From positions 70,981 through 134,980 of the forward strand of contig DAIMXP010000002.1 in assembly GCA_036734945.1 (NCBI GenBank): DNA of 64,000 bases, read 5' to 3'. Both the position numbers and the translations under genes were made by a program. The notes under the pieces were generated by a model. The model did no database searches. It saw nothing but the letters and a program-made list of their open reading frames with translations, and was not told the DNA's origin. Source of the stretch: Chloroflexota bacterium (GTDB lineage: Bacteria; Chloroflexota; UBA4733). The stretch's first letter is position 1; each line of letters starts with the position of its first letter. Positions 22,515 through 40,450 of this stretch are shown one piece after another.

Positions 22515-22594
22515 GGAACGCAAGGAATCTTTTGCGATTGTAGACCGTTCGCAAACGCAACTTTGCGCCCGCTTGCCGTATAGTCCCTGCAGTC
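22515..22594 (+). promoter_or_regulatory. conserved upstream element U1 of the peptide cassettes (operator/promoter candidate)
   Basis: About 80 bp, near-identical to 25938..26017. Contains the palindrome TTTGCGA-N11-TCGCAAA (22531-22555), then TTGCGCC-N7-CGTATAGT. Ends 46 bp before the MauE-like start. Confidence 0.5.
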
Positions 22595-22640
22595 CTTCAC
22601 ACTCTTGCTGGGCACCGTGGAGTTGCGGTGGAGAGAAGCC

Positions 22641-23219
22641 ATGGCATCGAATACCGTCGCGCAGGTGCAACTGGTGCTGCGGCTGACGCTGGGTTTAATC
22701 TTCCTGGCCTCCGCGCTGGCGAAGTTACGTCATCCAACGCTCTTCGTGCGCGGCGTGCTGGACTATCAGGTGCTGTCAACACCGTTGGCGGGGGCGTACG
22801 GGCGGCTGCTGCCGTTCATCGAACTTGGGACGGCACTACTACTGTTCAGTGGCTTTCTTCTGTTGATCGCCATCGGGCTTTCGATACTGATCCTCCTCAG
22901 CTTTGCTATCGCCATCGTGGTAGTCCTGACGCACGGGCGGCAGTTGCGCTGTCACTGCTTCGGTGAGGCTTCCACCGGATATGTCGGCTGGCATACCCTT
23001 GGTCGAGATGTGCTGCTCTTGCTCGTTGCCCTGTGCCTACTGGTCCTGGTGCACCTAACAGGTGGAAGCGCCCCCGGTTGGCTGAGTACTGACTTTGGCT
23101 GGGACGCTGTTGCGTTTGCCACTGCAGCGCTCATTGCGCTCACCTATGAACTGATCGCGCAGGGACTTGATGTGCTCATGAGCTTGCGGCATCCGCGGGC
23201 CATTGGGGAGCGGTGGTAG
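22641..23219 (+). CDS. MauE/DoxX-family redox-associated membrane protein (cassette A)
   Basis: Multi-TM protein. LRLTLGLIFLASALAKLRHPTLFVRGVLDYQVL ... RCHCFGE is the MauE-type pattern. ATG at 22641 follows GGAGAG. Confidence 0.8.
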   Translation: MASNTVAQVQLVLRLTLGLIFLASALAKLRHPTLFVRGVLDYQVLSTPLAGAYGRLLPFIELGTALLLFSGFLLLIAIGLSILILLSFAIAIVVVLTHGRQLRCHCFGEASTGYVGWHTLGRDVLLLLVALCLLVLVHLTGGSAPGWLSTDFGWDAVAFATAALIALTYELIAQGLDVLMSLRHPRAIGERW

Positions 23220-23237
23220 CAGGAACAAGAGGATGGA

Positions 23238-23867
23238 ATGGGTGCCGAAATGTGGTGGCATGTGGCTACGATTATCGCCTTGGTCCTGGCGGCGGCCGAG
23301 GCCATCTTACTGCTCGGTTTGACGCGGGTGGTAGCGCCGCTTGTGACAGGATCTGGTCCACGGCAATCGGCCGAACGCGGGGTGGCCGTGGGGACAATAA
23401 TGCCGGCAATGCGGTTGCCGGCGGCGGATGATGGGTGCCTGCAACCCGTGATCGGAGACGGCATCGATCGTGTCGTGCTTTTCATTTCACCGTCCTGCCA
23501 CGTATGTACCACCGTGCTACCAACGCTGCAGCCAGCAATTACACAGAGTGGTCGCCGTTGGGAGGTCGTCGCGGTAGTTTGCGGTCCACGAGCGGCTGCT
23601 GAGGAATACGCGCGCGCTATCGATCCACGAATACGCACCTTGCTTGATCCAGACAGCGCGGTCGAATCAGCCTTCGCGACCGGTCGCGCCTACCCCTTTG
23701 CCTTTGCCGTCAGCAGCGAGGGGATTGTTCGCGCCCGAGGTGTGGGAGGAAGTTGGGAAAGGCTGAATCACCTCGTGGCTGAGGGCGCAGGTGCTGGAAG
23801 ATTTACATCCGAGGCCGTGATAACCAGCGTCGTGGCGGCGGATCGGTCCGTTGTCACTCGTGGTTAG
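23238..23867 (+). CDS. membrane-anchored thioredoxin-like protein, divergent MauD-like (cassette A)
   Basis: N-terminal TM helix (WWHVATIIALVLAAAEAILLLGL) followed by VVLFISPSCHVCTTVLPTL (CxxC on a thioredoxin-like fold). Confidence 0.65.
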   Translation: MGAEMWWHVATIIALVLAAAEAILLLGLTRVVAPLVTGSGPRQSAERGVAVGTIMPAMRLPAADDGCLQPVIGDGIDRVVLFISPSCHVCTTVLPTLQPAITQSGRRWEVVAVVCGPRAAAEEYARAIDPRIRTLLDPDSAVESAFATGRAYPFAFAVSSEGIVRARGVGGSWERLNHLVAEGAGAGRFTSEAVITSVVAADRSVVTRG

Positions 23868-23896
23868 GTGCAAAGGACAAGAAAGGAAGTTGGGCC

Positions 23897-24169
23897 ATGA
23901 CTGATCTCAGTGGACGTTCGGCGATTTGGATAGGAGAGCAACTGAATCGGCGCGGGTTTGTCGGCCGCTTGGGCCGGGCAGCGACGCTAGCGACGTTTGT
24001 GGCGGCTGGTTTGGCGCTGGTGGCACCGGAGATTGCCAGTGCGGACTTACCCTGTTGCTCTAGCTGCTTGGTGTCGTGCTGTGATTCCATGTCCTGTTAT
24101 TGTTGCTCCTATAACACGGGGCAGTGCCCCAACGCTTCGTGCTCCGGCACGTGTAATCCTACCTGCTAG
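23897..24169 (+). CDS. Tat-signal cysteine-rich precursor P1 (49-aa leader + 41-aa core, 12 Cys)
   Basis: NRRGFVGRLGRAATLATFVAAGLALVAPEIASA | DLPCCSSCLVSCCDSMSCYCCSYNTGQCPNASCSGTCNPTC. RR motif, hydrophobic region and AxA cleavage site. Confidence 0.8.
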   Translation: MTDLSGRSAIWIGEQLNRRGFVGRLGRAATLATFVAAGLALVAPEIASADLPCCSSCLVSCCDSMSCYCCSYNTGQCPNASCSGTCNPTC

Positions 24170-24198
24170 CCGGGCGCGCATCCGCTAGGATACGTCCA

Positions 24199-25686
24199 AT
24201 GGAGGGATCGTTAACGACACGCCGAGCCGTCCTGGGTGTGCTTGCGGGCGGGATCGCGGTGGCGCTAAGTAGCTGTGCTGCCCCAATGCCGTCCCTCCCA
24301 TTCCGTCCGACGCCGCTTCCGACCCGAGTCACCGTTGTGGTCGGTGACGCCTACGTACACGCCACCGGTGATCCAGCGCACCGCGAGACGCAGGTCATTA
24401 ACCTAGACGACTCAGTGCCCAAATGGGTGACAGCGGCCGAGGAGATGCTGCGTGGACGGGTAGCGATGACCGTTCAGACCGCCGACCTTCTCCATGCTAC
24501 CTTCTGGCAGGAAATTACTGCCGGGGGCGTGACAATGGAGCAGCGACTGTATCTCACTAGCCACGCCATGCTCTGGCGTTTGCGTGCCGGGGGCCTCGTC
24601 GCGGACGTACATGGGCAGATGGCACAAGACAAGGGCCTGGCGGGAGGGCGCCTCCATCCAGATGCGGTCGCCGCGCTACAATGGCAAGGACAGCAAGCGG
24701 GACTGCCGGTGGCACTCTGGCCGATGCTGGCGGCAACGGATGCGCGGCTGCCGGCGCCACCAGTTGATTGGACGTGGGAGGATGCCGCCAGACTTCCTGC
24801 GGGCGCCGGGTGGCCGGTGCAGCTCATGCCCAATGCTCCACCACTGGAGGCGTGGCTCTGGTCCCATCAGGCTGACCTCGCCACAGCGGATGGGTCCAAG
24901 CTGTTGATTAACGAGTCAACGGGAATAGCCGCGCTCGCCGCCTACGCGCGAGCGTTCGGGCCGACTGGGGCCTTGAGTCCATTGCCTGGTGGCACAACGC
25001 CGTTCGGCGCAATGCCTCAGGTGATTCAGGCTTGGACAGCGCAGGCAGTGGCCATGCGGGACCGACAGATACAGAACCGGCAGGTCGTCGCGTGGTTCCC
25101 CGCTGATGAGTGGCCGCCCACTACCACCGGCGCGCATCGTTGGCAGGATGCCGTTGGCTCGCTGCGTCGTCTTGCCTCACCGGGCGCGACACAGTCTGGC
25201 CTGCCCATGGTCGTATACGGGCTGGGCATCCCTAACGCTGCCCCCAAGCCCGATCTCGTGTATCAGGTGGCACGGGCATTGCAAGATGCGGCGCCCAAGT
25301 TCCTTGCGTACTCGCCGTTCAGGCTCGACCAGGGTGCGGACGGGCTGCGACGCCAATGGGGCCAACTCGATATAGACCAGGCGGCGATGCTGGCGCAGCT
25401 CCTCACGCTTCACCTTCGCCCGGTCTGGGGAGTTCCCCGTCCGCCGTTTGCCTTGGGTAACTGGCCGCTGGGCGATCCGTCCACGATCACCGATGCCATG
25501 CAGTTCACCGGCACAGGACCGACTGGCATGCTTTCCAACCAGGCAGAAACCTCTGCCATGTTCGACGCGCTGACCAAGAGCGTGAGCCTGGTAACGGCGC
25601 TCCGCATTCTGGCACCGGGAGCTACTGCTGCCAATGCTGGGCATCTGCTCTCCGTCATCTTCAGGCTCATGGCGCAGCCGGCTTGA
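24199..25686 (+). CDS. orphan solute-binding-protein-like lipoprotein L1 (cassette A)
   Basis: TTRRAVLGVLAGGIAVALSSC (RR plus lipobox). The central region loosely resembles ABC family-1 SBPs and the paralogue at 38984..40450. No permease or ATPase is nearby. Confidence 0.6.
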   Translation: MEGSLTTRRAVLGVLAGGIAVALSSCAAPMPSLPFRPTPLPTRVTVVVGDAYVHATGDPAHRETQVINLDDSVPKWVTAAEEMLRGRVAMTVQTADLLHATFWQEITAGGVTMEQRLYLTSHAMLWRLRAGGLVADVHGQMAQDKGLAGGRLHPDAVAALQWQGQQAGLPVALWPMLAATDARLPAPPVDWTWEDAARLPAGAGWPVQLMPNAPPLEAWLWSHQADLATADGSKLLINESTGIAALAAYARAFGPTGALSPLPGGTTPFGAMPQVIQAWTAQAVAMRDRQIQNRQVVAWFPADEWPPTTTGAHRWQDAVGSLRRLASPGATQSGLPMVVYGLGIPNAAPKPDLVYQVARALQDAAPKFLAYSPFRLDQGADGLRRQWGQLDIDQAAMLAQLLTLHLRPVWGVPRPPFALGNWPLGDPSTITDAMQFTGTGPTGMLSNQAETSAMFDALTKSVSLVTALRILAPGATAANAGHLLSVIFRLMAQPA

Positions 25687-25937
25687 GGTAGGTACTGGGA
25701 AGTGGAACGTTTTGCATCCCCCGCCTGAGGCACGCCATAGCAGCAGGGATAGGAGGTCACCGCCAGGCTACATACGTCGATTCGACCAGGTAGGCTACCA
25801 CGCTTGCTAGCCGGATGTTGACAGTGCGTCCCTACGGTGCGCAACTGCAGCGCTTGCAAGGGGATGCGCCAGAGCAACTGGTGCTCTTTTTCCACGACAG
25901 CCACGGCTATTGGGTCGCCCTGGGACCACCAGCCGTT

Positions 25938-26017
25938 GGAATGCAAGGAATCTTTTGCGATTGTAGACCGATCGCAAACACAAATTTGCACCAACTTGTC
26001 GTAGTGTGGTTGCAGTC
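25938..26017 (+). promoter_or_regulatory. conserved upstream element U2
   Basis: GGAATGCAAGGAATCTTTTGCGATTGTAGACCGATCGCAAACACAAATTTGCACCAACTTGTCGTAGTGTGGTTGCAGTC. Near-identical to U1 and ends 25 bp before the MauD-like start. Confidence 0.5.
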
Positions 26018-26042
26018 TTGGCTCCGTAGCAGAAGGCCCCAG

Positions 26043-26600
26043 ATGACTGGAATTTGGCTCACCGCATTCGTGGCCCTCTGGCTAGTCGTGCTGCTTCTCG
26101 TAGCCATCGTGATCGGGGTGCTTCGCCACATCGGTATTCTCTATGGTCAGATGGTCCGTTCTTCGGGACCTCCAACAGAGTTGCGTATCGGGCAGTTGCT
26201 GCCAGACCTGAATTTACTGACGTCCAATGAGACAACAATGACCATCGGCCAATTCGCAGGAAGAATCTCAGATGTCGTTTTGATTAGTCCCGGATGCACC
26301 GAGTGCGAAAGGCTACTGGATCTCTTGGTAGAGGGCGATGTAGCCGGAGATCCAGCGGATAGACGAGTGATCATCAGCATAGGAGATATGCTGGCGACAC
26401 GCGAGATCCTGCAGAGTCATCAGGTTAGTCTGGATGATACAGTCTTGATCGATACAGGGGACAAGATTAGAAGGTTGTGGGGAGCCCACACAACGCCCGT
26501 GACAATTGTGGTTGACGAGCATTTAATGGTGGTGAGACAGGTCGTAGGTGTGGTCGATTCTCGGCACCTTCTACCTTTACCACAGCAGATTTGTGTTTAA
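26043..26600 (+). CDS. MauD-like membrane-anchored thioredoxin (cassette B)
   Basis: MTGIWLTAFVALWLVVLLLVAIVIGVLRHIGILYGQ ... VVLISPGCTEC. Same architecture as the copies at 31041 and 37721. Confidence 0.8.
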   Translation: MTGIWLTAFVALWLVVLLLVAIVIGVLRHIGILYGQMVRSSGPPTELRIGQLLPDLNLLTSNETTMTIGQFAGRISDVVLISPGCTECERLLDLLVEGDVAGDPADRRVIISIGDMLATREILQSHQVSLDDTVLIDTGDKIRRLWGAHTTPVTIVVDEHLMVVRQVVGVVDSRHLLPLPQQICV

Positions 26601-26679
26601 GAATCTTGTAGAAACTGGGATTTAGGCGAAGCTACGCTCTATATCTGTAACTGGGCGATAGAGAGAGGATCGTGGAGCC

Positions 26680-27096
26680 ATGCCAGGAGCACCGTCGGTC
26701 AATGTGCGGCCGTTGTCGCCAAAGCGGGACATTCCCGGTATCCTCTGGTCTTATACGCCGACATTGGGCGACGTTGGTGACGAGGCGTACTTGGGGCGCA
26801 TCGTAGTGGAGGTTACCGATGACGCAGAAAGGGTCGTGTTTATCGGTGTGAATGAGTCGATCGCTCGGCGGGCTGCAGCAGCCCTACAAGGAGGACATTC
26901 GTTTCCGCGGTCGGCCACCATTTGGCCGACAGTACCGATTACCGGAGCGGTACCCTCCGGGCAAATATATCGAGGGAGGGTGATTCTGGAATTCTGGAGT
27001 TCTACTATGAACATCGCGGTCTCAGAACTCGGCGGAAGAGCCGCCGAGTTGGTACTGCGCGCAGGCAAGGTGCTGGAGTCCTTCCCGGCTGCGTAG
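26680..27096 (+). CDS. uncharacterised cytoplasmic protein, cassette-specific family X (copy 1)
   Basis: 138 aa, with no signal peptide or TM segment. Shares YLGRIVVEV...IWP...YRGRVILEFW with 31699..32145 and 33757..34200. Confidence 0.7.
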   Translation: MPGAPSVNVRPLSPKRDIPGILWSYTPTLGDVGDEAYLGRIVVEVTDDAERVVFIGVNESIARRAAAALQGGHSFPRSATIWPTVPITGAVPSGQIYRGRVILEFWSSTMNIAVSELGGRAAELVLRAGKVLESFPAA

Positions 27097-27260
27097 TACT
27101 GGATGGGTAGACACCGACGTGAGTCGTTGCGTGGCCGGTGCATGCGCAACCGATGCGGTGGTACCTGTGTGCCGTATCTGTTTGGCGAATGCGGCAGTAA
27201 GAAAGCGTGGCAAGAGTGAGCGGCCTGGCATTGGGCGGTGGCAGGATCGGAGGAACTTCG

Positions 27261-28434: not shown

Positions 28435-29931
28435 TTACGCCGGCGGTACTGTACCTTTCACGAACTCGGTCGGGCTCAGGATGGTGCGATCTTCCGGCGT
28501 TGTCTTCGCGCACATCTCTCGTCCACGGCGCTTGAGTTCCTCGACGACATCTTGACGCGCCTTCCAAGGCAGCAGCTCCAATTGGCGCTGGAAGAGGCTG
28601 ACGCCGTGGACGAGAAACGCCACGGAGATTTCGGGGTCCAGCAGCCGCCAGGGAACGTCGCGGAGGATCGTCTGCACGTCCTGCAGCCCCGCCTCCCGGA
28701 AGCACTGCGCCGTCTCGCCGGGCACTGGGAGACGTCCGGGGAGGAGCGGCGGCGAGCCGCCCTTGCTATGCTGCCGGGCGAGGTCCAAGATCGGAGCGAA
28801 CCACTCCCGGCACCAGGGCTGATCGAGGGAGAATTGGCATGCTGACCACACCGCAACAGCACCACCGGACTTCGTCACACGCCGCATCTCCGTCAGCGCT
28901 CGCGGCGCCTCCGTGAGGTGGAGGAAGGACGTGCCCACGGTAGCAGCGAAGGCGCCGTCGCGGAACATGGGCAAGTGCTCGGCCGCTGCCCGGGTGAAGG
29001 TGACGTTACGGGCGTGCCGCTGCTTGGCCTTCGCCTTTGCCCGCTCCAGCATGCCGGGGGCGGGGTCTGTGGCGACGATCGAGCCGGTCGGTCCGATGGC
29101 CTCCCACAGCCCGCCCTCGAAGGTCTGGGTGGCCATGCCGCAGCCTACCTCCAGCACCTTGCCGCCGATGGGCAGCGACGCGAAGGCGGTAAATGCCTTG
29201 CGGCCTTCCAGGGCATCCGGCACCATTTGGGCGACCCGGGTGTCCCAATCCGCGAAGAGGTTGAACTGAGACAGGTAGATCAGCTGGAGCCGCCGCTCCA
29301 GGTAGCCGGAGGACTCCAGGACCTGACGCACCTCGTGGTAGTGCGCCTCGCCGAACGTGGTCTGCACCACTACCCGCCGCCCATCTCGCACCTCCATGGC
29401 GAGGAGGCCGGCGGCGATGCCGCCCAACAGTTCATCGTTGAGGGCATAGCCGACCCAGGGGCGGTGCAGTTTGCCGCGTACGAAGTCCTCTTCGGCGATA
29501 GCCCCGTAGTGGCGGACGGCGGTGTGGTTCTCGGCGAAGGTGACGACGCCGTAGACCCGCACCAGGGCCCCGAAGCCGCGCGCGGCGACGAAGCGGCGCA
29601 CGCGGGCGATCGCCATGGCTGCGAGGTCGGGACTGACGCGGATGCGCCCGAGTGTCTCGTGCGCGGCGGCTGCGGCCGTGGAGACGAGCGTCTCGTGGGC
29701 AGCCGTCCGCCCCATACGGATGGGGGCGGGGTAGCCGTCGAGAACCTGAGTGCGCAGGGGCTCCTTCCAGTGATCGACAGCGAGTTGGGCCGCCTCCTGA
29801 GCGAGCTGGTCCTGGCTGTCGAAGGCGATATATTCCTGTTCCAGCCCGGCGAGCCAGGGATCCACAATCAGGCCGTCCGCCAGGAAGGCGCGCAGGTCGT
29901 CCTCCAGGCCGACCAAGAGCGGCGGCGGCAT
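28435..29931 (-). CDS. class I SAM-dependent methyltransferase with ~250-aa N-terminal domain of unknown function
   Basis: I chose the start MPPPLL at 29931, preceded by AGGAGG. Motif I is VLEVGCGMA, with DPAPGMLERA downstream. It is the only minus-strand gene inside the cassette array. Confidence 0.8.
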   Translation of the reverse strand: MPPPLLVGLEDDLRAFLADGLIVDPWLAGLEQEYIAFDSQDQLAQEAAQLAVDHWKEPLRTQVLDGYPAPIRMGRTAAHETLVSTAAAAAHETLGRIRVSPDLAAMAIARVRRFVAARGFGALVRVYGVVTFAENHTAVRHYGAIAEEDFVRGKLHRPWVGYALNDELLGGIAAGLLAMEVRDGRRVVVQTTFGEAHYHEVRQVLESSGYLERRLQLIYLSQFNLFADWDTRVAQMVPDALEGRKAFTAFASLPIGGKVLEVGCGMATQTFEGGLWEAIGPTGSIVATDPAPGMLERAKAKAKQRHARNVTFTRAAAEHLPMFRDGAFAATVGTSFLHLTEAPRALTEMRRVTKSGGAVAVWSACQFSLDQPWCREWFAPILDLARQHSKGGSPPLLPGRLPVPGETAQCFREAGLQDVQTILRDVPWRLLDPEISVAFLVHGVSLFQRQLELLPWKARQDVVEELKRRGREMCAKTTPEDRTILSPTEFVKGTVPPA

Positions 29932-29980
29932 CAGGCACTCCTTCCTCCTGGGGAAGACGTGGGCGGACGCTCCCCGATTA

Positions 29981-30721
29981 TTGCGAGTGTATGCTATCCT
30001 CGTTGGCAAACCTCGGGGCCGGCGGCGCCACTCCCTCACGCAAAGCCGGTTCTTGCTCACCACGAGTCGGCACTTCCGGTCGCTCCTAGATGAGATCCTC
30101 CTGCAGTACGACCTCACGGCGACGTCGGCCACGTTGCGGGCGGCGCTGGAAGACCGGGAGCAGCCGGTCGTGCTCCTGCACGTCGAGCGCTGGGATACGG
30201 AGGCGGCGGGCCTCGTTGGGCGTCTGCTGGAGAGCACACCGCACGTCTACGTCATCTGTCCGCAGGCGGCCGATCTGCGCGTCGTCATCACCGTCTTGAA
30301 GACCGCCGCCGCCGATGCAACCGCTGACACCCCGCTGGCATAGCATGCCCTCGCGCTCAAGATTCGGCGGGTCGTGCGGGAACCGGAGCCCTGGCAGTGG
30401 CAGCTTGGTAGCCGCCGCTTCGTCCCGGCGGAAGGCCGTCTGTACGATCAGGGAAAGCGTATTGCGTTGACGGCAGCGGAGGTGCGGCTGCTCCGGCGGC
30501 TCTGCCTGGTCAGCGGAACGGAACCGCCCGGACGGTTGACGGTGGAGCAACTGGCATGGGAATTGGGCGGTAAGGCGACCAGCCGCGTGTCTTCGGCCCG
30601 CAACTACATCACGCAATTGCGGCGCAAGCTGGGCGATGATCCCAAAAAGCCGGTGATTCTCCGGCGCGACCGGGACGGGTATTGGGTCATCCTCGGCCTC
30701 CTCCCGGAACCATTGCATTGA
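29981..30721 (+). pseudogene. OmpR-type regulator with pseudo-receiver domain, interrupted by in-frame TAG (30341-30343)
   Basis: ORFs 29981..30343 and 30374..30721 share one frame. The read-through junction is ...ADTPLA*HALALKIRRVVRE, which falls in the receiver-output linker. The receiver lacks the acidic pocket and the phospho-Asp (FLLTTS, VLLHV). The output domain is LTAAEVRLLRRL...ITQLRRKLGDD...RDGYWVI. Confidence 0.6.
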
Positions 30722-30751
30722 CAGCACCGGGCCACCCCAACGCAACCCCCA

Positions 30752-30863: not shown

Positions 30864-31010
30864 ATGACGTCGAGTGGTCTCACCGAGGTGCAGCTGGCGC
30901 TGGGGCTGATCTTTCTCATCTCCGCCGGGGCCAAACTGCGCAACACGGCCGCTTTTGTGCGCGGACTGGCGGATTATGATGTCAAACTCTTCTCGATGAT
31001 GGCCACATAG
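30864..31010 (+). pseudogene. MauE-like N-terminal stub (48 codons)
   Basis: Own translation: MTSSGLTEVQLALGLIFLISAGAKLRNTAAFVRGLADYDVKLFSMMAT*. It aligns with the first ~45 aa of the MauE-like proteins at 22641 and 37107 and then stops. Confidence 0.6.
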
Positions 31011-31040: not shown

Positions 31041-31610
31041 ATGAGCGGTCTTTGGCTAGTCTCGTACGTTGTCATGTGGATCACTATTCTGCTCGTCGTT
31101 GCCTTGCTAATTGGAATCCTAAGGCATATTGGAATATTGTACGAACAGAGCGGCCGGCACCGAGCGTCGACTGATCTTCGTGCAGGTCAGGTTCTTCCTG
31201 ACCTCACCTTGAGTACCTTCGACGGAAGTCGTCTCCGCATATCTCATTTTGCGGGACATGCGACACATTTCGTGGTTGTGGCTCCTAACTGTTCAGCTTG
31301 CGGCGAGTTGCTGAGTCGCTTGCAAAAAGCAGCCAGCGACGACAGCGGTGCCATGGAACGACACGTCATCGTGAGCATGGGAAATCGGGCGGCCACGGCG
31401 GAATTACTTCAAGTGGCCGGAATGGTGCCTAATAGCTCGGTTCTAATTGATGAAGATGAGAAGATCAAAGGGGCTTGGGGAGTTCGGGCTACTCCGGTCA
31501 CACTGGAAGTTGACGAACAACTGAAAGTACTTAGGCAGATCATAGGTGCCGCCGACCTACGTCAACTTCCTCCACTAGTGCAACTCAGCGGAGCGCCGCA
31601 AGCAAACTAG
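31041..31610 (+). CDS. MauD-like membrane-anchored thioredoxin (cassette C)
   Basis: MSGLWLVSYVVMWITILLVVALLIGILRHIGILYEQ ... FVVVAPNCSACGELL. Confidence 0.8.
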   Translation: MSGLWLVSYVVMWITILLVVALLIGILRHIGILYEQSGRHRASTDLRAGQVLPDLTLSTFDGSRLRISHFAGHATHFVVVAPNCSACGELLSRLQKAASDDSGAMERHVIVSMGNRAATAELLQVAGMVPNSSVLIDEDEKIKGAWGVRATPVTLEVDEQLKVLRQIIGAADLRQLPPLVQLSGAPQAN

Positions 31611-31698
31611 CATCCGCTCCCGTAGAGCGAGAGGTGACTCAACAGCCAGATGGGCAGGTATTGCAGATCCTGTGTAGGCGGAAAGTTGAGGTGAGGCG

Positions 31699-32145
31699 AT
31701 GGCTACCGGTTCAAGTGGCCTAATCCCGGCGGTAGTCCCTATGCCAGGTTCCGGCCGGTCATCACCGGTTGCAGCTGTTCCAGGAGTCTGGGCGCACTTC
31801 ACGACCCTTGGGACTGTAGCCGGTGAGCAGTATCTGGGACGCATCGTGGTCGAACTGTTCGATGGGCGTGATCCCCCCGCGGTGGCCTTCATTGGCGCAG
31901 ATCGACAACTCGTTGAACGCGCAGTCGCCGCCTTGGGTGGGGGGGATGTGCCAGGGCCGGAACCTGCTATGTGGCCAGCCGGATCAATCATCGTCCCCAG
32001 CGAGCCAGCCGCAGCGTATCGCGGGCGGATCATGATGGAGTTTTGGCAAAGAACGGTGAAAGTTACCGCGTCGGGATCTGCTGGCAATACGGCGGATCTT
32101 GTCCAGCGAGCACTTCAGGCTTTGCAACGGGTTGGAGCGAGGTAG
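31699..32145 (+). CDS. uncharacterised cytoplasmic protein, family X (copy 2)
   Basis: YLGRIVVELFDG...MWPAGSIIVPSEPAAAYRGRIMMEFW. Paralogue of 26680..27096. Confidence 0.7.
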   Translation: MATGSSGLIPAVVPMPGSGRSSPVAAVPGVWAHFTTLGTVAGEQYLGRIVVELFDGRDPPAVAFIGADRQLVERAVAALGGGDVPGPEPAMWPAGSIIVPSEPAAAYRGRIMMEFWQRTVKVTASGSAGNTADLVQRALQALQRVGAR

Positions 32146-32312
32146 CTGCTCTTTGTCGCCTTCCGACTTCGTACGAGACTAGTTCAACTGGAGCGTCCTT
32201 CTGTAAAGACAAGTGGTGGGTGGCGTCGCTTAGCTCCTGATGTTCAATTGCCAAAACGCAGCGGAGTACCGCAAGCAAACAAGCATCCTCATTTAGTCGG
32301 GGGAGAGGCCGG

Positions 32313-33618: not shown

Positions 33619-33756
33619 GACAAGTCTGACCTCTTACGAAAATTCTCGAAGTGGGGGAAGTGTGTTTCTTCTCGCGAGAGAGCAAGCGGGTTCTGGGTTG
33701 ACGGTTACAGCAGAGCGTCAATGAGCGGTGAGGTAAAGCTTCGAGGAGGTGGCATA

Positions 33757-34200
33757 ATGTCAGGAGTCGGTTATCAGCCAACATTCGCGCCAGTACGAGT
33801 GCCCCAACAATGGATCGCCCGAATAGGCCCGAGTAGTAGTCCCGCCGTTTGGTCATTGGTTCCGACATTGGGGCGGGTGGCTAGCGAGAAGTATTTGGGC
33901 CGCATCGTGGTAGAGGTCTTCGACACTGGAGGTAAAATCGCCCTGCTTGGCATCGGGAAGGAATACATCCCACGGGCGATCGCGGCTCTGCAACAGACGG
34001 GGGCATTGCCGCACGAGACGACAGTTTGGCCTTCCGAACCAATCATGGGCCACCAATTACCCGACCAGACCTACCGTGGCTGAGTTGTCGTTGAGATGTG
34101 GGAGGTGGGTACTAAAGTGAATGGATCGTCCAGCACCGATGCGAGCGTAAGCTTGTTGCATCGAGCCAGCGAGGCCTTGAGGATTTTCCCTATCCTGTGA
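33757..34200 (+). pseudogene. family X paralogue (copy 3) with in-frame TGA at 34081-34083
   Basis: KYLGRIVVEVFDTGG...VWPSEPIMGHQLPDQTYRG*VVVEMWEVGTKVNGSS...ALRIFPIL*. The TGA replaces the Arg of the conserved YRGR(V/I)xxEFW motif, and the frame stays open to 34200. Confidence 0.6.
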
Positions 34201-34966: not shown

Positions 34967-35554
34967 GTGCGACTTGACTATCTCAACGAGCAGACGGCCG
35001 TTCGTCTCTGTCAGCGAGGCGATCCTGCAGGTCTGGCTTCGCTCGTGCTGCGACAACAGGCTGAAGCGCTCAGAGTGGCTGCGTTGATCACCCGAGATCC
35101 GCAACTCGCGGAAGATGTCGTGGCGGATGCCTTTCTCACCGCGTTTCGACGCATCCATAGCTTTGATGCTGAGCGCCCGTTCCGGCCTTGGTTCCTGCGC
35201 GTGGTTACGAATACGGCGCTGAAGTCGCTCCGCTCTCGTCGTCGCGAGATACCCTGGCTTGCTACTGCGGATCATGGGTCGTCTACGGTACCCGTGCCCT
35301 TCGGTATCGCTGCGCGGGCGGAGGAGAGCACAGCCAAGGACATAGCGACGGTAGACGATCATGAAACCGTCCGTTGGGCACTGCGGGCACTTCCACCGAA
35401 GCAACGCGCTGCGATCATTCTCAGGTACTTCGCTGATCTGAACGAAGGGGAAATCGCGCTGGCACTGGGCATTCCAAGGGGAACGGTGAAGTCGCGTCTT
35501 TCCAATGGAATTGCTCGCTTGCGCGTCAAACTCGTCGAGACCTGGCCATCCTAA
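34967..35554 (+). CDS. ECF-type sigma-70 family factor (1)
   Basis: Region 2 (AEDVVADAFLTAFRRIHSFDAERPFRPWFLRVVTN) and region 4 (LPPKQRAAIILRYFADLNEGEIALALGIPRGTVKSRL). GTG start. Confidence 0.85.
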   Translation: MRLDYLNEQTAVRLCQRGDPAGLASLVLRQQAEALRVAALITRDPQLAEDVVADAFLTAFRRIHSFDAERPFRPWFLRVVTNTALKSLRSRRREIPWLATADHGSSTVPVPFGIAARAEESTAKDIATVDDHETVRWALRALPPKQRAAIILRYFADLNEGEIALALGIPRGTVKSRLSNGIARLRVKLVETWPS

Positions 35555-35572
35555 GCACTTGGAGGTTCCAAC

Positions 35573-36931
35573 ATGGATCCGTCAACCATTCGCCAAGTCC
35601 TGGAAGAGGAAGCCGAAGTATTGGTTCCTTTCCCTGCCGATCTCAGGCCACGCGTTCTGCTAGCGCTCAGCGCTGAGCGCGCCGCCGCGCAGAGACGGCG
35701 CTTTGGTGTCGTTGGAGCCATCCTTGTGGCGGTTGTCGCGCTTGCCGTCACTCTGGGGCCCGCCTACGCGGGCGCTATCGGCCAAGACGTGGTCGCGCGA
35801 CTGCAGGTAGCGCTTGGTGGAAGGACCGAAGTGCAAATGCAGCGCGACGTGCAAGCGCCAGTCGCTGTCGCTCCCAGTCCTCCCTTTTCCGTATTCCAGC
35901 CGACCGCCCTTCCCGTGGACCTGCCGCGTCGTGGGGTGACCTATGACCCCGGCGCGATAGACCCCGCTACGGGGCTGCGCTTACCCTCGGTGGAGGGAAC
36001 AGGTGACGTCGACTACGTGCGCCTTGGTCTTCGCATCGAGCGGCGGGATGCGTTTCTCCTCGTGCGCTACGTCGGCTCAGCCGACCGGGGCACCGGGGGT
36101 CGCGAACTCATTCTACTCGAGCGCCAGGCGACACACGCGGAGCAACTTCCCGCTGGCTCCCGCATGCAAGTCCTCGGTCAGCCAGCGTCACTCGGAAGGA
36201 CAGCGAACGGGCTCCTGCTGTCCACCATCATGAGTGGTACCTGGCTACAGGTCTGGACGAATGTGAGTCAGATGGAGCTGGATCAGGTTGTGCGAAGCTT
36301 ACAAATGACTTCCCCTGGCAACGGCGCACCGGCACCTCCGACCTATCCAACGGCGACACCCGCTCCCAGCCCTGTTCCCGGCAGCTATCCTCCCTTAGTG
36401 CATCCGACATATCTCCCGGCCGGCTTCGACAACGCGAGTATCGGCTACTTTACGATCCCTCCTGAGGGCCAGAACCTCAGGCTTCCACCGTTGAATTCCG
36501 GGGTCTCCGGGCCGGTCCGACGATCGGACCTCAAGCCGATTCTGGAGCGGCTTGACTGGCCGCAAATCGAAAAGGCCTGGAACGCCGTAGGAGGCGGCGT
36601 GTTCGGAGGCTTCTTTACGGGCGACACCAAGTTGGACTTTCTTGAGATCGGACCGGTCCGTCTCGATGGCAGCCCGGATGGCACTGCTATGACCACCGAC
36701 GGAGGCCGCACCGTCTGGATGGTCGGGAGTGAGGCAGGCGCCGGGTTCAAAGCCCGCTGGCGAGACGGTTCTCCTTTGGATCTCACGGAGAGCTACCTTG
36801 CCCAAAACCCCAATCCCAGAGCGCGAGAGGTAGTCATCTGGGTCGATGGAGATCGCGTCGTGTGGCTACGCTCCGACCTACCGCAGACCGAGATGCTCAG
36901 ATTCATCGACGGGCTGACGACGAATCGCTGA
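35573..36931 (+). CDS. single-pass membrane protein, putative anti-sigma factor with large extracytoplasmic domain
   Basis: Starts 19 bp after the sigma gene. Short cytoplasmic N-terminus, then TM segment FGVVGAILVAVVALAVTLG, then ~380 aa outside the membrane. No zf-HC2 motif was seen, so the role is inferred from position. Confidence 0.5.
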   Translation: MDPSTIRQVLEEEAEVLVPFPADLRPRVLLALSAERAAAQRRRFGVVGAILVAVVALAVTLGPAYAGAIGQDVVARLQVALGGRTEVQMQRDVQAPVAVAPSPPFSVFQPTALPVDLPRRGVTYDPGAIDPATGLRLPSVEGTGDVDYVRLGLRIERRDAFLLVRYVGSADRGTGGRELILLERQATHAEQLPAGSRMQVLGQPASLGRTANGLLLSTIMSGTWLQVWTNVSQMELDQVVRSLQMTSPGNGAPAPPTYPTATPAPSPVPGSYPPLVHPTYLPAGFDNASIGYFTIPPEGQNLRLPPLNSGVSGPVRRSDLKPILERLDWPQIEKAWNAVGGGVFGGFFTGDTKLDFLEIGPVRLDGSPDGTAMTTDGGRTVWMVGSEAGAGFKARWRDGSPLDLTESYLAQNPNPRAREVVIWVDGDRVVWLRSDLPQTEMLRFIDGLTTNR

Positions 36932-37106
36932 CACTTCAGCAGGTTGGCATACGTTCTGAATGTCGGCGGCGACAATCTCGTGAATCATATCCGGTCGCAT
37001 GCTGGCGCAACCGAACATTGCAGAATCGCCCTCATTCACAGAGAATAATTGCGCCGAAACGCTGTAAGATTTCCACACTGATAGTCAAAGGGCATGGAGG
37101 CAGGGC

Positions 37107-37682
37107 ATGCCGCTCGCGATCACGTCAGCGGTTCAAGCCGGTTTAGCATTCTTTGTCGGTGTCGTTCTCCTGCTCTCCGGCGCTCCAAAAATCGCGGCTC
37201 CGCGCTCGTTTGTCCGTGTCGTGGTCGATTACGAGGTGCTTCCTACCGCACTCGCGCGCCTCTATGGCGTTGCATTGCCTTGGGTGGAGTGCGTGGTTGG
37301 TTTGCTGCTGCTGACCGGCTTCTTGTTGCAGGTCGCGGCCGGGCTCGCCGTCCTCACATTCGTGAGCTTCTTGATCGCGGTGTCCATCAATCTGCGCCGT
37401 GGGCGCGACATGGACTGCCACTGTTTTGGCGACGCTCTTTCTGATCGCATCGGTCGGAGTACGGTCGTGCGCTTGGTGTTGGTTCTTATCCCTTCCTTGC
37501 TTGTGCTGCTGTCCGCGCCGCCGGGAGTAGGCGGTCCCTGGATCGGTGGTCAGGCCTCACGCCTCGGTGGCGATCTTGGGATTCTCCTTCCGCTAGCCTT
37601 CGTGTCCCTCACGCTGGTGTTGCTGTACGTCCTAGTGACGCAGGTGCTCGCCATGGCCGAACAGCGGGCGAGTAATGCCTGA
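37107..37682 (+). CDS. MauE/DoxX-family redox-associated membrane protein (cassette E)
   Basis: GVVLLLSGAPKIAAPRSFVRVVVDYEVLP...LPWVECVVGLLLLTGF...DCHCFGD. Confidence 0.8.
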   Translation: MPLAITSAVQAGLAFFVGVVLLLSGAPKIAAPRSFVRVVVDYEVLPTALARLYGVALPWVECVVGLLLLTGFLLQVAAGLAVLTFVSFLIAVSINLRRGRDMDCHCFGDALSDRIGRSTVVRLVLVLIPSLLVLLSAPPGVGGPWIGGQASRLGGDLGILLPLAFVSLTLVLLYVLVTQVLAMAEQRASNA

Positions 37683-37720
37683 TACGCCATTGGGGTAAAA
37701 CACGAAAGGAGCGTTGATCG

Positions 37721-38347
37721 GTGAACGGCGCCTGGCTGGCTTCGTACGTCGTGATGTGGGTCCTTTTGCTCGTAGTCGGCTTCTTGGTGCTTGGTTTACT
37801 CCGCCAAGTCGGGCTACTCAACGAGCGCCTCGTGAAAACCGATCAATCCAGAGTTGCAGGGCTTGATCCTGGCGCAACTGCGCCACTGTTCCACGCCATT
37901 GGCTTGAACGGTCGAGAGATCTCGCTCGGCGGGCTCATGGATCAGGAGAAGACCGTCTTGCTCGTGTTCGCCAGTCCGCGCTGCGGCCCGTGCGTGCAGA
38001 TGGCCTCGGTGTTCGAGGCGTTCTATCAGCGGGTAAGCGACCGCGGATGGGAAGTGCTTATGGTCGGTGTCGGCACCGGCCGCGCCGGGGTCGAGGCCTA
38101 TGCCAGAGATACGGGCGTGCATTTCCCGCTCATTGCTCAGGAGCGTGACGAGATCTCGTTGCCTTATAAGTTTGCGGGGTCGCCGTTCGCTTTCGTTCTA
38201 CATGGCGGCATCGTTAAGGCGCGACGGAAGGTCGAGGACGAGCAGCAGTTTGCCGTGCTATTGCGGGAAGGAGGGTTCTCATCGACAGGGAATGCACTGT
38301 TACCGGCGGTGGCCAACGGGAAACGAGCGCTCTTTGCAGGGCGTTGA
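37721..38347 (+). CDS. MauD-like membrane-anchored thioredoxin (cassette E)
   Basis: (V)NGAWLASYVVMWVLLLVVGFLVLGLLRQVGLLNERL ... LLVFASPRCGPCVQM (CGPC). Confidence 0.8.
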   Translation: MNGAWLASYVVMWVLLLVVGFLVLGLLRQVGLLNERLVKTDQSRVAGLDPGATAPLFHAIGLNGREISLGGLMDQEKTVLLVFASPRCGPCVQMASVFEAFYQRVSDRGWEVLMVGVGTGRAGVEAYARDTGVHFPLIAQERDEISLPYKFAGSPFAFVLHGGIVKARRKVEDEQQFAVLLREGGFSSTGNALLPAVANGKRALFAGR

Positions 38348-38398
38348 GCACGCTCCAACTCGGGAGTATTCGAGGCAGAGTAAGAGGGAGTGGCGGCG

Positions 38399-38788
38399 AT
38401 GAATAAGATATTGTGGGATGAGAGCTTTCGGGATCTTACGGTGCAACTTGCGCGCGCGGAAGCGCGCCGAGGCTTTCTCAAGATGGCAGGAAAGGTGGCC
38501 GGGCTAACCGCTGGTGCCCTATTCGGCTCAAGCACCGTCGCCTGGGCGAGTAAGGGAACACCGGATTGCGTACCCGACTGTAGCTGTACGATCTCCTGCG
38601 ACCCGGGTTCTGCTTGCAATTGCCATCCTGGCGATCACAGTTATTGTGGGTCATGTACAACGAGCCATGGCACTATTGGCGTCACGACTACTGTTGACTG
38701 TTCCTGCACAACGTACGTCAACTGCTGCACAGGGGTGCCGTGTCAGACATACTGCAATTCAACTACTGACTGTCCTGATTGTCCGTGA
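38399..38788 (+). CDS. Tat-signal cysteine-rich precursor P5 (50-aa leader + 79-aa core, 16 Cys)
   Basis: ATG at 38399 follows AGGGAG (the ORF track starts at GTG 38390). ...ARRGFLKMAGKVAGLTAGALFGSSTVAWA | SKGTPDCVPDCSCTISCDPGSACNCHPGDHSYCGSC...NCCTGVPCQTYCNSTTDCPDCP. Confidence 0.8.
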   Translation: MNKILWDESFRDLTVQLARAEARRGFLKMAGKVAGLTAGALFGSSTVAWASKGTPDCVPDCSCTISCDPGSACNCHPGDHSYCGSCTTSHGTIGVTTTVDCSCTTYVNCCTGVPCQTYCNSTTDCPDCP

Positions 38789-38983
38789 TGACGGTTGAGG
38801 ACGCTCGCCGACAATATGAGGAGGCGTCCGTTCTCGCTTCGGCGGCGAATGCTATTCACTCGGGGGATCAGCAGAATGGTCGATCCTGGATTTTGCGTAC
38901 GATGGCCATGACCGTGTTGACGCCATTCCAGGCCGCGACGATGATGCAATCGAAGCCGGAGGAACTGCAGGAGATAGTCCCCC

Positions 38984-40450
38984 ATGATTTGCACGACACG
39001 CCGGTCGGTACTCCAGGCAGCAGCGAGCGCCCTCGCCGTTGGCCTGTGCAGCGCCTGTTCGGCCCCGATCTTCTCCAAAGGTTCGGTGGTCCGGGCGCTC
39101 CCCAAGCTGACCATCCTCGCAGCCTATCCGAGGTCGTCGTCTGGCGTCGCCAAGCCGGCCTGGCTGACGCCGCTGCGAGAGGCGGCCGACCATCTCAACG
39201 CCACCCGGCAGGACCAACTCGGCGCGGTATTGGACCTTCGCACTTTTACCGTTGACCAAGCACCGGGTGCCGTCGCCACCGCCGGCAACGGCCAAGTCAG
39301 CAGCTTCAACATGACCACCTACGACAATGCCCTGGCCGAGGCCGTCAGCGAACAGGCCGACGTGCTCATCTCCATGGAGACGCTTGGACTGGGCATGCTG
39401 ACGCAGTTGGACCACGCCAAGGTGCTGGCGGCGTTGGACACGTACTTGGCGCGGGAACGACCCAGCCAGCAGGTCGACTACTACCCGGGCGTCCTCGGCC
39501 TGGGCCGCATCGCCGGACGGCAAGTCGCTCTTCCCCTGCAGGTGCAGCCCTGGCTGATGCGCTACGACGCCAAGCTGTTCCAGACCATCGGCGTCGGCTC
39601 CCCGCCGCCCGACCGGCCTTGGACCTGGCAACAGCTCATCGACCTTGCCCCCAAACTCGTCCAGCGCGATCCCAAGACCGGCGCCAACCTCCGCTGGGCA
39701 TGCCGGATCGAGACCTTGCCGGTGGAGATCGCCATCTGGCAGGCCGGCGGCGATATCGTGAACGCCCAGAATGCCGTCGTCTTGGACCAGCCGGCGGCGA
39801 TTCAGGGCGTCACCTTCTGGCGCGACCTGGAGGTTGCCGATCAACTTGATGCGCCCAACACCCTGCCGCCCCGGCTCACCGGCACGCGCTCCCATCCCTA
39901 CGCCATCGCCACGCTCGGCGGGGGCTTCGCCGCCACCACCTTCGAGCCAACCACCCGGTACAGTTACCATCTGGCGGACATCCCCAAGAACTGGGACGCG
40001 GGCCTGGGCTTCGCTCCTATCCCCGCCGGGGCGCCGGCCGGCAACGTGCCGGTGACCAAGCTCGATCTGGAGTTGGCGGGTGCCGTCGCCGCTCACAGCC
40101 GGCAGCCCGACCTGGCCTTCACGGCGCTGCGGGCGCTGGAGCAGGCCATCGGTCCCGCGCTGCTGCTCTCGGCGATCCGTCCGCTGGCGTCTCGGCGCTT
40201 GAAAGACGGCAGTATCGATCCGCGCCTGGCGACGGCGCTGGGCTGGGGCATGGCCCTTGGCCGCGCCAGTAGCGCCGATGCGCTCGGCGCGGATGCCCTC
40301 AATCGGCTGGTCGACGTGTTCCCCGGCCTGCCGAGAGCCGATGCTCCCGGCCTGCCGCCACAGCAACTCTGCGCCGACGTGGCGAAGCTGCTCCGCTACC
40401 GGCAGGTATGCGGTCCGGTGCCGGCCTACTGCCCTGCCGCCGCGCCGTGA
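38984..40450 (+). CDS. orphan ABC-type solute-binding-protein-like lipoprotein L2 (cassette E)
   Basis: TTRRSVLQAAASALAVGLCSAC (RR plus lipobox). ALPLQVQPWLMRYDAKLFQTIGVGSPPPDRPWTWQQLIDLAPKL...IWQAGGDIV is typical of family-1 SBPs. No transporter genes are nearby. Confidence 0.7.
   Translation: MICTTRRSVLQAAASALAVGLCSACSAPIFSKGSVVRALPKLTILAAYPRSSSGVAKPAWLTPLREAADHLNATRQDQLGAVLDLRTFTVDQAPGAVATAGNGQVSSFNMTTYDNALAEAVSEQADVLISMETLGLGMLTQLDHAKVLAALDTYLARERPSQQVDYYPGVLGLGRIAGRQVALPLQVQPWLMRYDAKLFQTIGVGSPPPDRPWTWQQLIDLAPKLVQRDPKTGANLRWACRIETLPVEIAIWQAGGDIVNAQNAVVLDQPAAIQGVTFWRDLEVADQLDAPNTLPPRLTGTRSHPYAIATLGGGFAATTFEPTTRYSYHLADIPKNWDAGLGFAPIPAGAPAGNVPVTKLDLELAGAVAAHSRQPDLAFTALRALEQAIGPALLLSAIRPLASRRLKDGSIDPRLATALGWGMALGRASSADALGADALNRLVDVFPGLPRADAPGLPPQQLCADVAKLLRYRQVCGPVPAYCPAAAP

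Follow-up and report, generated by a model that had tools for sequence, protein, structure and literature searches.

What do MauE and MauD, accessory proteins in the production of methylamine dehydrogenase (MADH), do at a locus where their genes recur beside genes for small cysteine-rich proteins? The question is raised by a 64,000-nucleotide stretch of a soil/permafrost Chloroflexota genome (assembly GCA_036734945.1, contig DAIMXP010000002.1, positions 70,981 to 134,980; hereafter the window), which carries mauE genes, mauD-like genes and five genes for Cys-rich precursors with putative twin-arginine (Tat) signals. We find that this region is a birth-and-death array of paralogous MauE/MauD-plus-client modules. 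The explanation that we favour, and that we consider probable without great assurance, is that such modules mature their mini-proteins by disulfide formation outside the membrane, and that these mini-proteins are likely extracellular ligands.

Complete and decaying modules

Every open reading frame (ORF) named by a first-pass annotation, which had described five iterated cassettes (A to E), is found with the same coordinates in an ORF listing, and all are on the forward strand (Table 1). However, the equivalence implied by that wording does not hold and hides substantial gene decay. Only A and E are complete modules, with MauE, a MauD-like protein, a precursor and a Tat-lipoprotein; the other three units are partial. 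Unit B is without MauE, unit C retains a 48-codon MauE remnant, and unit D is without any redox gene. For five precursors, the tally is 2 MauE, 4 MauD-like proteins, 2 intact members of a family that we call X, and 2 lipoproteins. Going by their sequences, the units sort into two types. In type 1 (A and E), MauE and a MauD-like protein would go with a precursor whose leader is of the MauA type, and with a Tat-lipoprotein that resembles solute-binding proteins. In type 2 (B, C and D), which is decaying, the MauD-like protein would be joined by X, and the leader of the precursor is of the FDRLTKA type.

Three inactivating lesions lie within 4 kb: the in-frame TGA in the X gene of unit D, which had been noticed before and falls at the conserved Arg of a YRGR motif; an in-frame TAG in a gene for an OmpR-type response regulator, whose alignment to the intact regulator of a related locus (L013) continues through the stop codon (E 3e-39); and the MauE stub of unit C. 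The stub, correctly recognized in the first-pass annotation by its likeness to MauE, scores below the PF07291 gathering cutoff of 27 bits that both full-length proteins exceed, and is without the CXC site, the conserved Lys and the conserved Glu. All available independent assemblies, compared over up to 17.9 kb, carry the lesions at 100% identity; they come from four JGI metagenomes, two ENA assemblies, one Logan run and the metagenome-assembled genome GCA_036805165.1. The lesions are therefore real; a sequencing or assembly error behind the TGA or the MauE stub is ruled out. A relative, L007, keeps the order regulator, MauE, MauD-like protein, precursor, X, precursor, extracytoplasmic function (ECF) sigma factor and anti-sigma factor, in what we read as the intact ancestral arrangement.

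The redox pair and its putative cysteine-rich clients

The MauE identity first proposed for the membrane proteins of units A and E stands, since both pass the PF07291 search. The residues C104-H-C106-F107-G108, K28 and E61 are invariant in these two proteins and in the MauE of L007. According to a recent preprint, MauE proteins of two phyla can stand in for DsbB in E. coli and need their CXC site to do so; Phe and Gly are conserved after this site, and a conserved Lys and Glu lie near the predicted quinone site (bioRxiv 10.64898/2026.03.05.709764). The same work reports that about 8% of MauE proteins are fused to thioredoxin domains and that MauE occurs mostly without MauA, which 10% of MauE-bearing species carry. 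The window proteins share with these DsbB-replacing proteins the PF07291 domain, the CXC followed by F-G in the loop between transmembrane (TM) helices 3 and 4, the Lys in TM1, the Glu in TM2, the occurrence without MauA and the thioredoxin-fold partner. They differ in that the middle residue of CXC is His, where Gly or Ala is usual, and in being duplicated and tied to specific Cys-rich clients, whereas the pathway of the preprint is a generalist one. On the strength of the CXC-F-G site and the conserved Lys and Glu, we predict that MauE of the window is a DsbB-like, quinone-linked oxidase.

All four thioredoxin-like proteins have a TM-like N-terminus and a CxxC motif at residues 84-91, and their genes come after mauE in A and E. 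TIGR02661 (MauD) is their best or joint-best named match, with 29.4-51.0 bits, and they match AhpC-TSA and Redoxin models as well as ResA- and TlpA-type NCBIfam models. Because the equivalog cutoff of TIGR02661 is 188.6 bits, we call these proteins MauD-like: the thioredoxin-like fold and CxxC of the earlier description are there, but the proteins are not MauD equivalogs. The ratio of non-synonymous to synonymous substitution (dN/dS) is 0.22 between the MauD-like protein of unit A and its L028 orthologue.

The five precursors are the only Cys-dense ORFs of the window in all six frames. The sizes, twin-arginine (RR) motifs and Cys-packed cores previously attributed to them are confirmed. They share a layout in which an RR motif (NRRGFVG in A3, SRRRLGG in B3, SRRRVLV in C3, SRRRFAG in D3 and ARRGFLK in E3) is followed by a hydrophobic stretch, an AxA-type site and a Cys-packed core. 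The cores have 41-79 residues and, from A3 to E3, 12, 16, 20, 20 and 16 Cys, which amounts to 20-29% Cys compared with about 1.3% in long ORFs. They are acidic or neutral, with few charged residues, some aromatics and almost no His. A Shine-Dalgarno-like motif precedes all five ORFs. Comparison of A3 with its L028 counterpart (P0009) gives a dS of 0.57 and a dN/dS of 0.15, with all 12 Cys kept; for D3 and the ORF at 1898-2290 of L007, dN/dS is 0.18 and the Cys are invariant. By these comparisons, the precursor ORFs are genuine genes under purifying selection. Library scans returned no Pfam or NCBIfam family for any window precursor, and no match to TIGR02659 or PF02975; E3 reaches 15.2 bits with TIGR01409 (TAT_signal), whose cutoff is 16.7.

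Across 20 precursors of the family, the number of Cys after the RR motif is even in 19, with values of 8, 12, 14, 16, 18 and 20, and the single odd-count precursor has one Cys inside its signal region. This parity is as full disulfide pairing would predict, and it argues for all-paired disulfides rather than metal-thiolate clusters.

The association is not peculiar to this genome. A genome scan with MauE only returned 10 loci, mostly in Chloroflexota (Dehalococcoidia, Ktedonobacteraceae and Chloroflexia), and a small Cys-rich ORF adjoins MauE in 8 of them. In the seven Chloroflexota loci L008-L014, MauE is followed by a TM-thioredoxin gene and then by 1-3 Cys-rich ORFs with Tat signals. The order MauE, MauD-like protein and Cys-rich Tat ORF is also found in L007, L021, L022 and L028, and a MauE-thioredoxin fusion occurs as well (L015; Thermaerobacter). 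In L017 (Actinomycetes bacterium KLBMP 9797), a 78-aa Cys-rich ORF with no RR signal (5487-5723) lies upstream of MauE and a thioredoxin-like gene. Clustered at 90% identity, the Dehalococcoidia-type client amounts to at least 233 protein clusters, every one "hypothetical" and without a Pfam domain. Judging by gene order, we regard MauE, a MauD-like protein and a Cys-rich protein with a Tat-type signal as a conserved triad across Chloroflexota.

Other genes accompany the triad in relatives. In other Chloroflexota lineages, a conserved polytopic membrane protein of 170-210 aa, which matches neither Pfam nor NCBIfam, comes after it (Table 1). Around L021 and L022, a conserved operon reads Tat protein (302 aa), MauE, MauD-like protein, one or more clients, polytopic membrane protein and small lipoprotein. 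In the Dehalococcoidia-type operon, the 302-aa Tat-signal protein precedes the triad and the lipoprotein that follows has 155 aa. None of these three additional proteins is present in the window.

The gene order of mau clusters is mauE-mauD-mauA, as in mauFBEDACJGMN of Paracoccus denitrificans. The window modules resemble this core in having a polytopic MauE and a TM-anchored, MauD-type thioredoxin-like protein, followed by a small protein that would be exported through Tat and carry many disulfides. When diverse Chloroflexota clients were combined into a profile, it matched the leader-containing preMauA chain 3c75_L (E 2e-7), at first sight beyond the leader and into the core. Homology of the cores is rejected: with shallow and deep alignments alike, hhalign paired clients and MauA over 32-37 columns, all of them in the leader (Prob 84-95), and core-only hidden Markov models (HMMs) fared no better on mature MauA than on shuffles, 288 to 1444 of 2000 composition-matched shuffles scoring at least as high. 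The MauA leader is long and Tat-type, with a conserved n-region (..SRRVAGRTSRRG.IGRLG..), and matches the Chloroflexota leaders with an hhalign Prob of 94.6. An HMM of the Chloroflexota leaders gave 21.8 bits to MauA, 22.6 to E3 and 17.0 to A3, compared with at most 11.1 bits for 17 other Tat signals. This HMM does not support a MauA-like leader in B3, C3 and D3, which share the pattern FDRLTKAxAxxLSRRR and are of a derived type. Because leader similarity and gene order occur together, they suggest that the leader, rather than the mature domain, has a common ancestry or is recognized in the same way. The earlier view of the precursors as distinct from MauA thus stands for the cores but has to be amended for the A3 and E3 leaders, which resemble the MauA leader.

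We also compared folds, using a related Dehalococcoidia-type client core in place of the window cores: its AlphaFold2 (AF2) model (predicted local distance difference test, pLDDT, 78-92) had no Foldseek match in the PDB, MADH light chains included. Nine diverse Chloroflexota clients (alignment A4) have an invariant Tyr and Asp (Tyr84 and Asp98 in the L008 client at 7206-7586) that HMMER sets opposite Trp57 and Asp76 of MauA, at the site of the tryptophan tryptophylquinone (TTQ) cofactor. This alignment is probably a coincidence, while a Tyr-derived cofactor in Chloroflexota clients is possible. In agreement with the first-pass annotation, the window cores lack the Trp pair of TTQ (0, 0, 1, 0 and 0 Trp from A3 to E3), and neither mauB nor mauG is visible: no ORF in the 64-kb window has two CxxCH motifs, as expected of the di-heme protein MauG, there is no PF06433 (MauB) match among ten other large window ORFs, and no MauB or MauG family match was found in the 20-kb neighbourhoods of two long contigs, L021 and L022. 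In contrast to mau clusters, then, MauB, MauG and amicyanin were found neither in the window nor around L021 and L022; the window cores have no sequence similarity to MauA, and the genome has several divergent clients together with X, lipoproteins like solute-binding proteins and ECF sigma pairs.

Family X, lipoproteins and regulatory genes

The three X paralogues of the window are 37-41% identical to each other, and library scans found no Pfam or NCBIfam match for the family. A word-indexed homologue search found only X itself, a misleading result given that an exhaustive HMM search later recovered about 100 representative homologues. An AF2 model of X_C (pLDDT 59) had no Foldseek match in the PDB (best E 0.31). 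Elsewhere, X occurs with a TM anchor, as a lipoprotein, after a signal peptide and a DUF4367-like domain, after a LuxR-type helix-turn-helix (HTH) domain and a TM helix, and after an OmpR-type winged HTH (wHTH) domain and a TM helix, as in ToxR-like proteins. From these architectures, we take the X domain to be extracytoplasmic in its relatives. It also keeps close company with the triad: in L026, a MauD-like gene is followed by an FDRLTKA-type precursor with 16 Cys, whose stop codon is overlapped by a TM-anchored X; in L024, a ToxR-like X regulator is immediately upstream of the MauE and MauD-like genes; and L023 contains a string of precursor, X, ECF sigma and anti-sigma genes. The family thus recalls ToxR-like one-component regulators and ECF anti-sigma sensors, in that homologues of X form the extracytoplasmic C-terminal domain after wHTH-TM or LuxR-HTH-TM segments, and one is fused to a DUF4367-like anti-sigma domain. 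In contrast, X of the window stands alone and has neither a DNA-binding domain nor a TM helix or signal peptide. A hidden upstream extension that would supply a signal or TM helix is excluded, only 3-34 in-frame codons being available. The window proteins may be either cytoplasmic or exported while bound to the Tat-substrate precursor.

In the complete modules, the partner is a lipoprotein. Lipoprotein A, which has no Pfam match and no PDB sequence match, is weakly similar to lipoprotein E (23% identity, E 3e-4). Its position after the precursor is kept in L028, with a dN/dS of 0.22. In the A-type cassette of L028, the lipoprotein gene (1210-2703) is followed by a second, paralogous Tat-lipoprotein gene (2723-3310), so the lipoprotein partner also duplicates.

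Earlier interpretation of the locus as a maturation system was largely right, but it missed a probable layer of sensing or binding, to which family X and the two ECF sigma/anti-sigma gene pairs that flank the cassettes point. The extracytoplasmic domain of the anti-sigma-like protein at 35573-36931 is 40% identical (E 8e-12) to the N-terminal domain of a protein, P0168, in which it is fused to X; no X-like domain was found within the anti-sigma protein itself. An orthologue of ECF sigma factor 2 also follows the cassette in L013 (E 7e-92). The methyltransferase encoded on the reverse strand next to the broken regulator has 600 aa, with a C-terminal methyltransferase domain and an N-terminal region of about 340 aa; its relative in L013 (3387-4907, E 9e-185) is placed likewise with respect to the regulator and MauE genes. 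The methyltransferase may belong to the system as a modifying enzyme, or its placement may be no more than synteny.

Sequences upstream of the units are also related. An 83-nt element is repeated before cassettes A and B, and TTGC-N10-YGTA occurs 40-63 nt upstream of the first gene in A, B, C and E, a pattern derived from these same four sites, so that the count is circular. The 83-nt element and the pattern within it may represent a common promoter or operator, possibly ECF-type. A scan for sigma-70 promoters and terminators gave no excess over shuffles.

Table 1. Features of the array and its surroundings; positions refer to the window unless a locus is named
Feature	Position	Strand	Remarks
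Upstream element before cassette A, 83 nt	22512-22594	+	contains TTGCGCCCGCTTGCCGTA (22563-22580), 61 nt before MauE_A start
MauE_A, polytopic membrane protein	22641-23219	+	PF07291 83.6 bits; C104-H-C106-F-G
MauD-like_A	23238-23867	+	N-terminal TM anchor, CHVC; AhpC-TSA 31.9 bits; TIGR02661 29.4 bits
Precursor A3, 90 aa	23897-24169	+	NRRGFVGRLG leader (MauA type), ASA site, 41-aa core, 12 Cys
Lipoprotein A, 495 aa	24199-25686	+	Tat-type lipoprotein signal TTRR...LSSC; divergent relative of lipoprotein E
Second copy of 83-nt element, before cassette B	25935-26017	+	direct repeat, 83% identity to 22512-22594
MauD-like_B, no MauE in unit	26043-26600	+	CTEC; TIGR02661 32.4 bits; phmmer E 4e-46 to MauD-like_C
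X_B, 138 aa, standalone X domain	26680-27096	+	no signal peptide; paralogue of X_C; 6 in-frame upstream codons only
Precursor B3, 119 aa	27261-27620	+	LDRLTRSAALRLSRRR leader, AYA site, 16 core Cys
SAM (S-adenosylmethionine)-dependent methyltransferase	28435-30237	-	Methyltransf_25/11 matches; long N-terminal domain without assigned function
OmpR-type response-regulator gene, broken (pseudogene or split)	29981-30721	+	in-frame TAG at 30341-30343; Trans_reg_C 28.3 bits on 3' part
MauE remnant, 48 codons, unit C	30864-31010	+	PF07291 20.7 bits; E 1e-7 to MauE_A
MauD-like_C	31041-31610	+	CSAC; TIGR02661 38.6 bits; AhpC-TSA and Redoxin matches
X_C, 148 aa, standalone X domain	31699-32145	+	predicted duplicated beta-beta-alpha unit (YLGRIVVE / YRGRIMME)
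Precursor C3, 129 aa	32313-32702	+	FDRLTKATALALSRRR leader, ASA site, 20 core Cys
Precursor D3, 138 aa	33202-33618	+	FDRLIKATAIRLSRRR leader, VYA site, 20 core Cys
X_D pseudogene	33721-34200	+	in-frame TGA at 34081-34083 in place of conserved Arg of YRGR
ECF sigma factor 1	34967-35554	+	Sigma70_r2 and r4_2 domains
Anti-sigma-like membrane protein	35573-36931	+	extracytoplasmic domain aa 178-247, homologous to DUF4367-like domain
Shared upstream motif copy before cassette E	37049-37066	+	from motif comparison of upstream regions
MauE_E	37107-37682	+	PF07291 90.4 bits; C104-H-C106-F-G
MauD-like_E	37721-38347	+	CGPC; TIGR02661 51.0 bits; AhpC-TSA 39.8, Redoxin 32.8, Thioredoxin_8 28.9 bits
Precursor E3	38390-38788	+	132 aa from GTG, 129 aa from ATG at 38399; ARRGFLK, AWA site, 16 core Cys
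Lipoprotein E, 488 aa	38984-40450	+	Tat-type lipoprotein signal TTRR...LCSAC; SBP_bac_1 (PF01547) 47.4 bits, cutoff 26
ECF sigma factor 2	40977-41594	+	Sigma70_r2 and r4_2; directly after cassette E
Anti-sigma-like partner of ECF sigma 2	41581-42489	+	overlaps sigma 2 gene end
Polytopic protein, 170-210 aa, L008	8628-9206
Polytopic protein, 170-210 aa, L009	7892-8521
Polytopic protein, 170-210 aa, L010	7919-8437
Polytopic protein, 170-210 aa, L012	7916-8548
Polytopic protein, 170-210 aa, L014	7335-7976
Polytopic protein, 170-210 aa, L021	8156-8731
Polytopic protein, 170-210 aa, L022	11142-11660

A few further features were recorded. A 34-nt direct repeat with 88% identity has one copy (31582-31615) spanning the end of the MauD-like_C gene (stop at 31610) into the gap before X_C, and the other (32255-32288) in the gap before C3. 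An Rfam scan of the whole window found nothing in the cassette region; two 24-nt CRISPR-DR28 matches, at 1717-1740 (+) and 19882-19905 (-), score 35.4 bits against a threshold of 35, lie 18 kb apart on opposite strands without forming an array; a dispersed repeat or chance probably accounts for them. The genes for a RES-domain toxin and an HTH/Rv2175c_C-type protein (20497-21066 and 21111-21758, both on the reverse strand) that lie immediately upstream of cassette A are likely to form a RES-Xre toxin-antitoxin pair. A large DUF255/Thioredox_DsbH thioredoxin-domain protein is encoded at 12332-14527 (-; 257.6 bits), with no established link to the cassettes.

Precedents, rival explanations and meaning

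The first-pass annotation knew of no described system of this composition, a claim that was too broad, although the precedents are bioinformatic or peripheral. In Streptomyces, decRiPPter (Kloosterman et al. 2020) found candidate clusters for peptides made on ribosomes and modified after translation (RiPPs) that combine mauE/mauD with precursors of at least 8 Cys and lack other mau genes (PMC7794033). Class I lasso peptide clusters carry DoxX/thioredoxin pairs, SviE/SviF and MslE/MslF (PMC9266682). The decRiPPter families resemble the present modules in placing mauE, and in one family mauD, beside a small precursor with at least 8 Cys, peptide maturation being inferred there as well; the actinomycete locus L017 resembles their arrangement. 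They are purely computational candidates in Actinobacteria, and in L017 the precursor lies upstream of MauE and is without an RR signal, whereas the Chloroflexota systems have Tat/MauA-type leaders and larger cores (41-79 aa, 12-20 Cys), and add X-domain or lipoprotein partners and ECF regulators. The sublancin operon encodes another redox pair, BdbA/BdbB. Like the lasso clusters, it joins a membrane redox protein and an oxidoreductase to a disulfide peptide; these peptides, however, have 2 disulfides and need a lasso cyclase or a glycosyltransferase, whereas disulfides, 6-10 per product, are the only modification we infer for the window modules, whose leader would double as an export signal. 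What is new here is that clients other than MauA carry the Tat/MauA-type leader, that the family is so extensive in Chloroflexota, that its products are of this size and predicted number of disulfides, that X-domain and lipoprotein partners come with ECF and ToxR-like links, and that the modules have both multiplied and decayed within one genome.

According to the explanation that we favour, the precursor would be made in the cytoplasm with its long twin-arginine leader and then exported, Tat dependence being suggested by the SRRxF-type motifs and the precedent of MauA. Signal peptidase would cleave at the AxA site, and the membrane-anchored MauD-like CxxC protein would oxidize or isomerize the exported precursor. 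MauE would in turn re-oxidize the MauD-like protein through its CHC-FG loop, electrons presumably flowing from MauD to MauE. The released product would be an acidic or neutral mini-protein of 41-79 residues with all 12-20 Cys paired in 6-10 disulfides. Type-2 units (B, C and D) would rely on MauE in trans. X and the lipoproteins would bind the mini-proteins as cognate partners, whether as sensors, immunity factors or retention factors. Because X is extracytoplasmic or fused to sensors elsewhere, and because ECF sigma/anti-sigma pairs flank the cassettes, our best-supported guess is that the mature mini-proteins are ligands outside the cell, serving either as self-signals or as antagonistic peptides. 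As to the dedicated disulfide-maturation module proposed in the first-pass annotation, the work on MauE as DsbB, the presence of the CXC, Lys and Glu, the even Cys counts and the conserved synteny all speak for it, but several units have decayed.

Alternatively, the same maturation may yield bacteriocin-like toxins, with X and the lipoproteins acting not as sensors but as immunity proteins, by analogy with LanI. Lantibiotics are known for LanI-type lipoprotein immunity and for auto-induction. In the array, too, cores diversify rapidly behind conserved leaders, paralogues are multiple and a binder gene sits beside each precursor; decRiPPter moreover classed analogous clusters as RiPP-like. Yet the window cores are acidic or neutral, not cationic, no dedicated ABC exporter or protease is adjacent, and dN/dS values of about 0.15-0.18 show no arms-race positive selection between the compared orthologues. 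Since fusions of X to DNA-binding regulators recur, and one to an anti-sigma domain is seen as well, sensing fits better than immunity, and we find the toxin alternative doubtful. Less plausible is that MauE and the MauD-like proteins serve general housekeeping oxidative folding and that the Cys-rich ORFs are ordinary neighbours. MauE has been proposed as a generalist DsbB replacement, only a tenth of MauE-bearing species have MauA, and MauE has to serve units B, C and D in trans, all of which would suit a general role. Against it, 2 MauE and 4 MauD-like genes lie within 18 kb, upstream of Cys-dense Tat ORFs; many Chloroflexota lineages keep the three-gene order, with genes that lie close together or overlap; and the CxxC dipeptide varies by cassette, as expected of client-tuned paralogues.

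A slightly slimmer chance still attaches to the idea that the cores are extracytoplasmic metal-binding proteins, metallothionein-like or buffering Cu/Zn, whose thiols are kept free by MauD-like proteins acting as TlpA/ResA-like reductants. Cofactor-loaded proteins are typical Tat cargo, the cores are Cys-dense with few charged residues, ResA- and TlpA-type models match, and cassette E has CGPC. However, an even Cys count in 19 of 20 precursors, across 8-20 Cys, is expected of paired disulfides and not of thiolate clusters, the cores have aromatics and almost no His, and the partner MauE is experimentally an oxidase (bioRxiv 10.64898/2026.03.05.709764). Very improbable, finally, is that the precursors are light subunits of MADH-like quinoprotein dehydrogenases, with a MauB-like heavy subunit and MauG encoded elsewhere in the genome. 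The order of the triad, the MauA-like leaders of A3, E3 and the Chloroflexota family, and the Tyr/Asp pair of alignment A4 are what recommends it; 0-1 Trp per core, core-only HMMs at shuffle level, an hhalign similarity confined to the leader, a related core that matched no MADH light chain and the absence of di-heme ORFs or MauB matches from the window, and of both families from the L021 and L022 neighbourhoods, speak against it. Five divergent paralogues in one genome are, in addition, unlike an enzyme subunit.

The disulfide-maturation reading has its own difficulties. The MauD-like proteins score far under the MauD equivalog cutoff and MauD-like_E has CGPC, the classic reducing thioredoxin motif, so the direction of electron flow is not certain. 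X of the window has neither signal peptide nor TM helix, unlike its extracytoplasmic relatives. E3 is the sole window precursor that approaches the TIGR01409 cutoff, and the shared upstream pattern provides no independent evidence. In the lasso systems, SviF and MslEF are dispensable for disulfide formation (PMC9266682). Moreover, as three of the five units bear marks of decay, part of the array may be non-functional.

A bolder extension, which we put forward tentatively and think unlikely as a whole, is that MauE and MauD form a leader-addressed folding machine that makes a large class of mini-proteins read by an X receptor, in a new system of signalling or antagonism. The MauA-type n-region and RR leader would be the tag that delivers clients to MauE/MauD, MauA being one specialized client. 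The products would be Tat-exported mini-proteins with 6-10 disulfides, and X, as an extracytoplasmic receptor domain, would read them in its standalone form, membrane-anchored, on ToxR-like or LuxR-type regulators, or on anti-sigma factors. The signal-less X of the window would leave the cell by hitchhiking on the Tat-targeted precursor.

These loci offer dedicated natural candidates for MauE clients, namely hundreds of Chloroflexota mini-proteins with 4-10 predicted disulfides, which would help test the recent proposal of MauE as a widespread DsbB-like oxidase. What the MauA leader does in MADH biogenesis lacks, to our knowledge, an explanation; judging from the leader that MauA and these clients share, it may address clients to MauE and MauD. 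Should the array prove more ordinary, it would still be a clear case of birth-and-death evolution at a secreted-peptide locus. As a discovery pool, the family would supply, from a phylum that is under-explored, many genetically encoded cysteine-knot scaffolds of predicted hyper-stability, and the X domain is a possible cognate receptor linking such scaffolds to the control of transcription.

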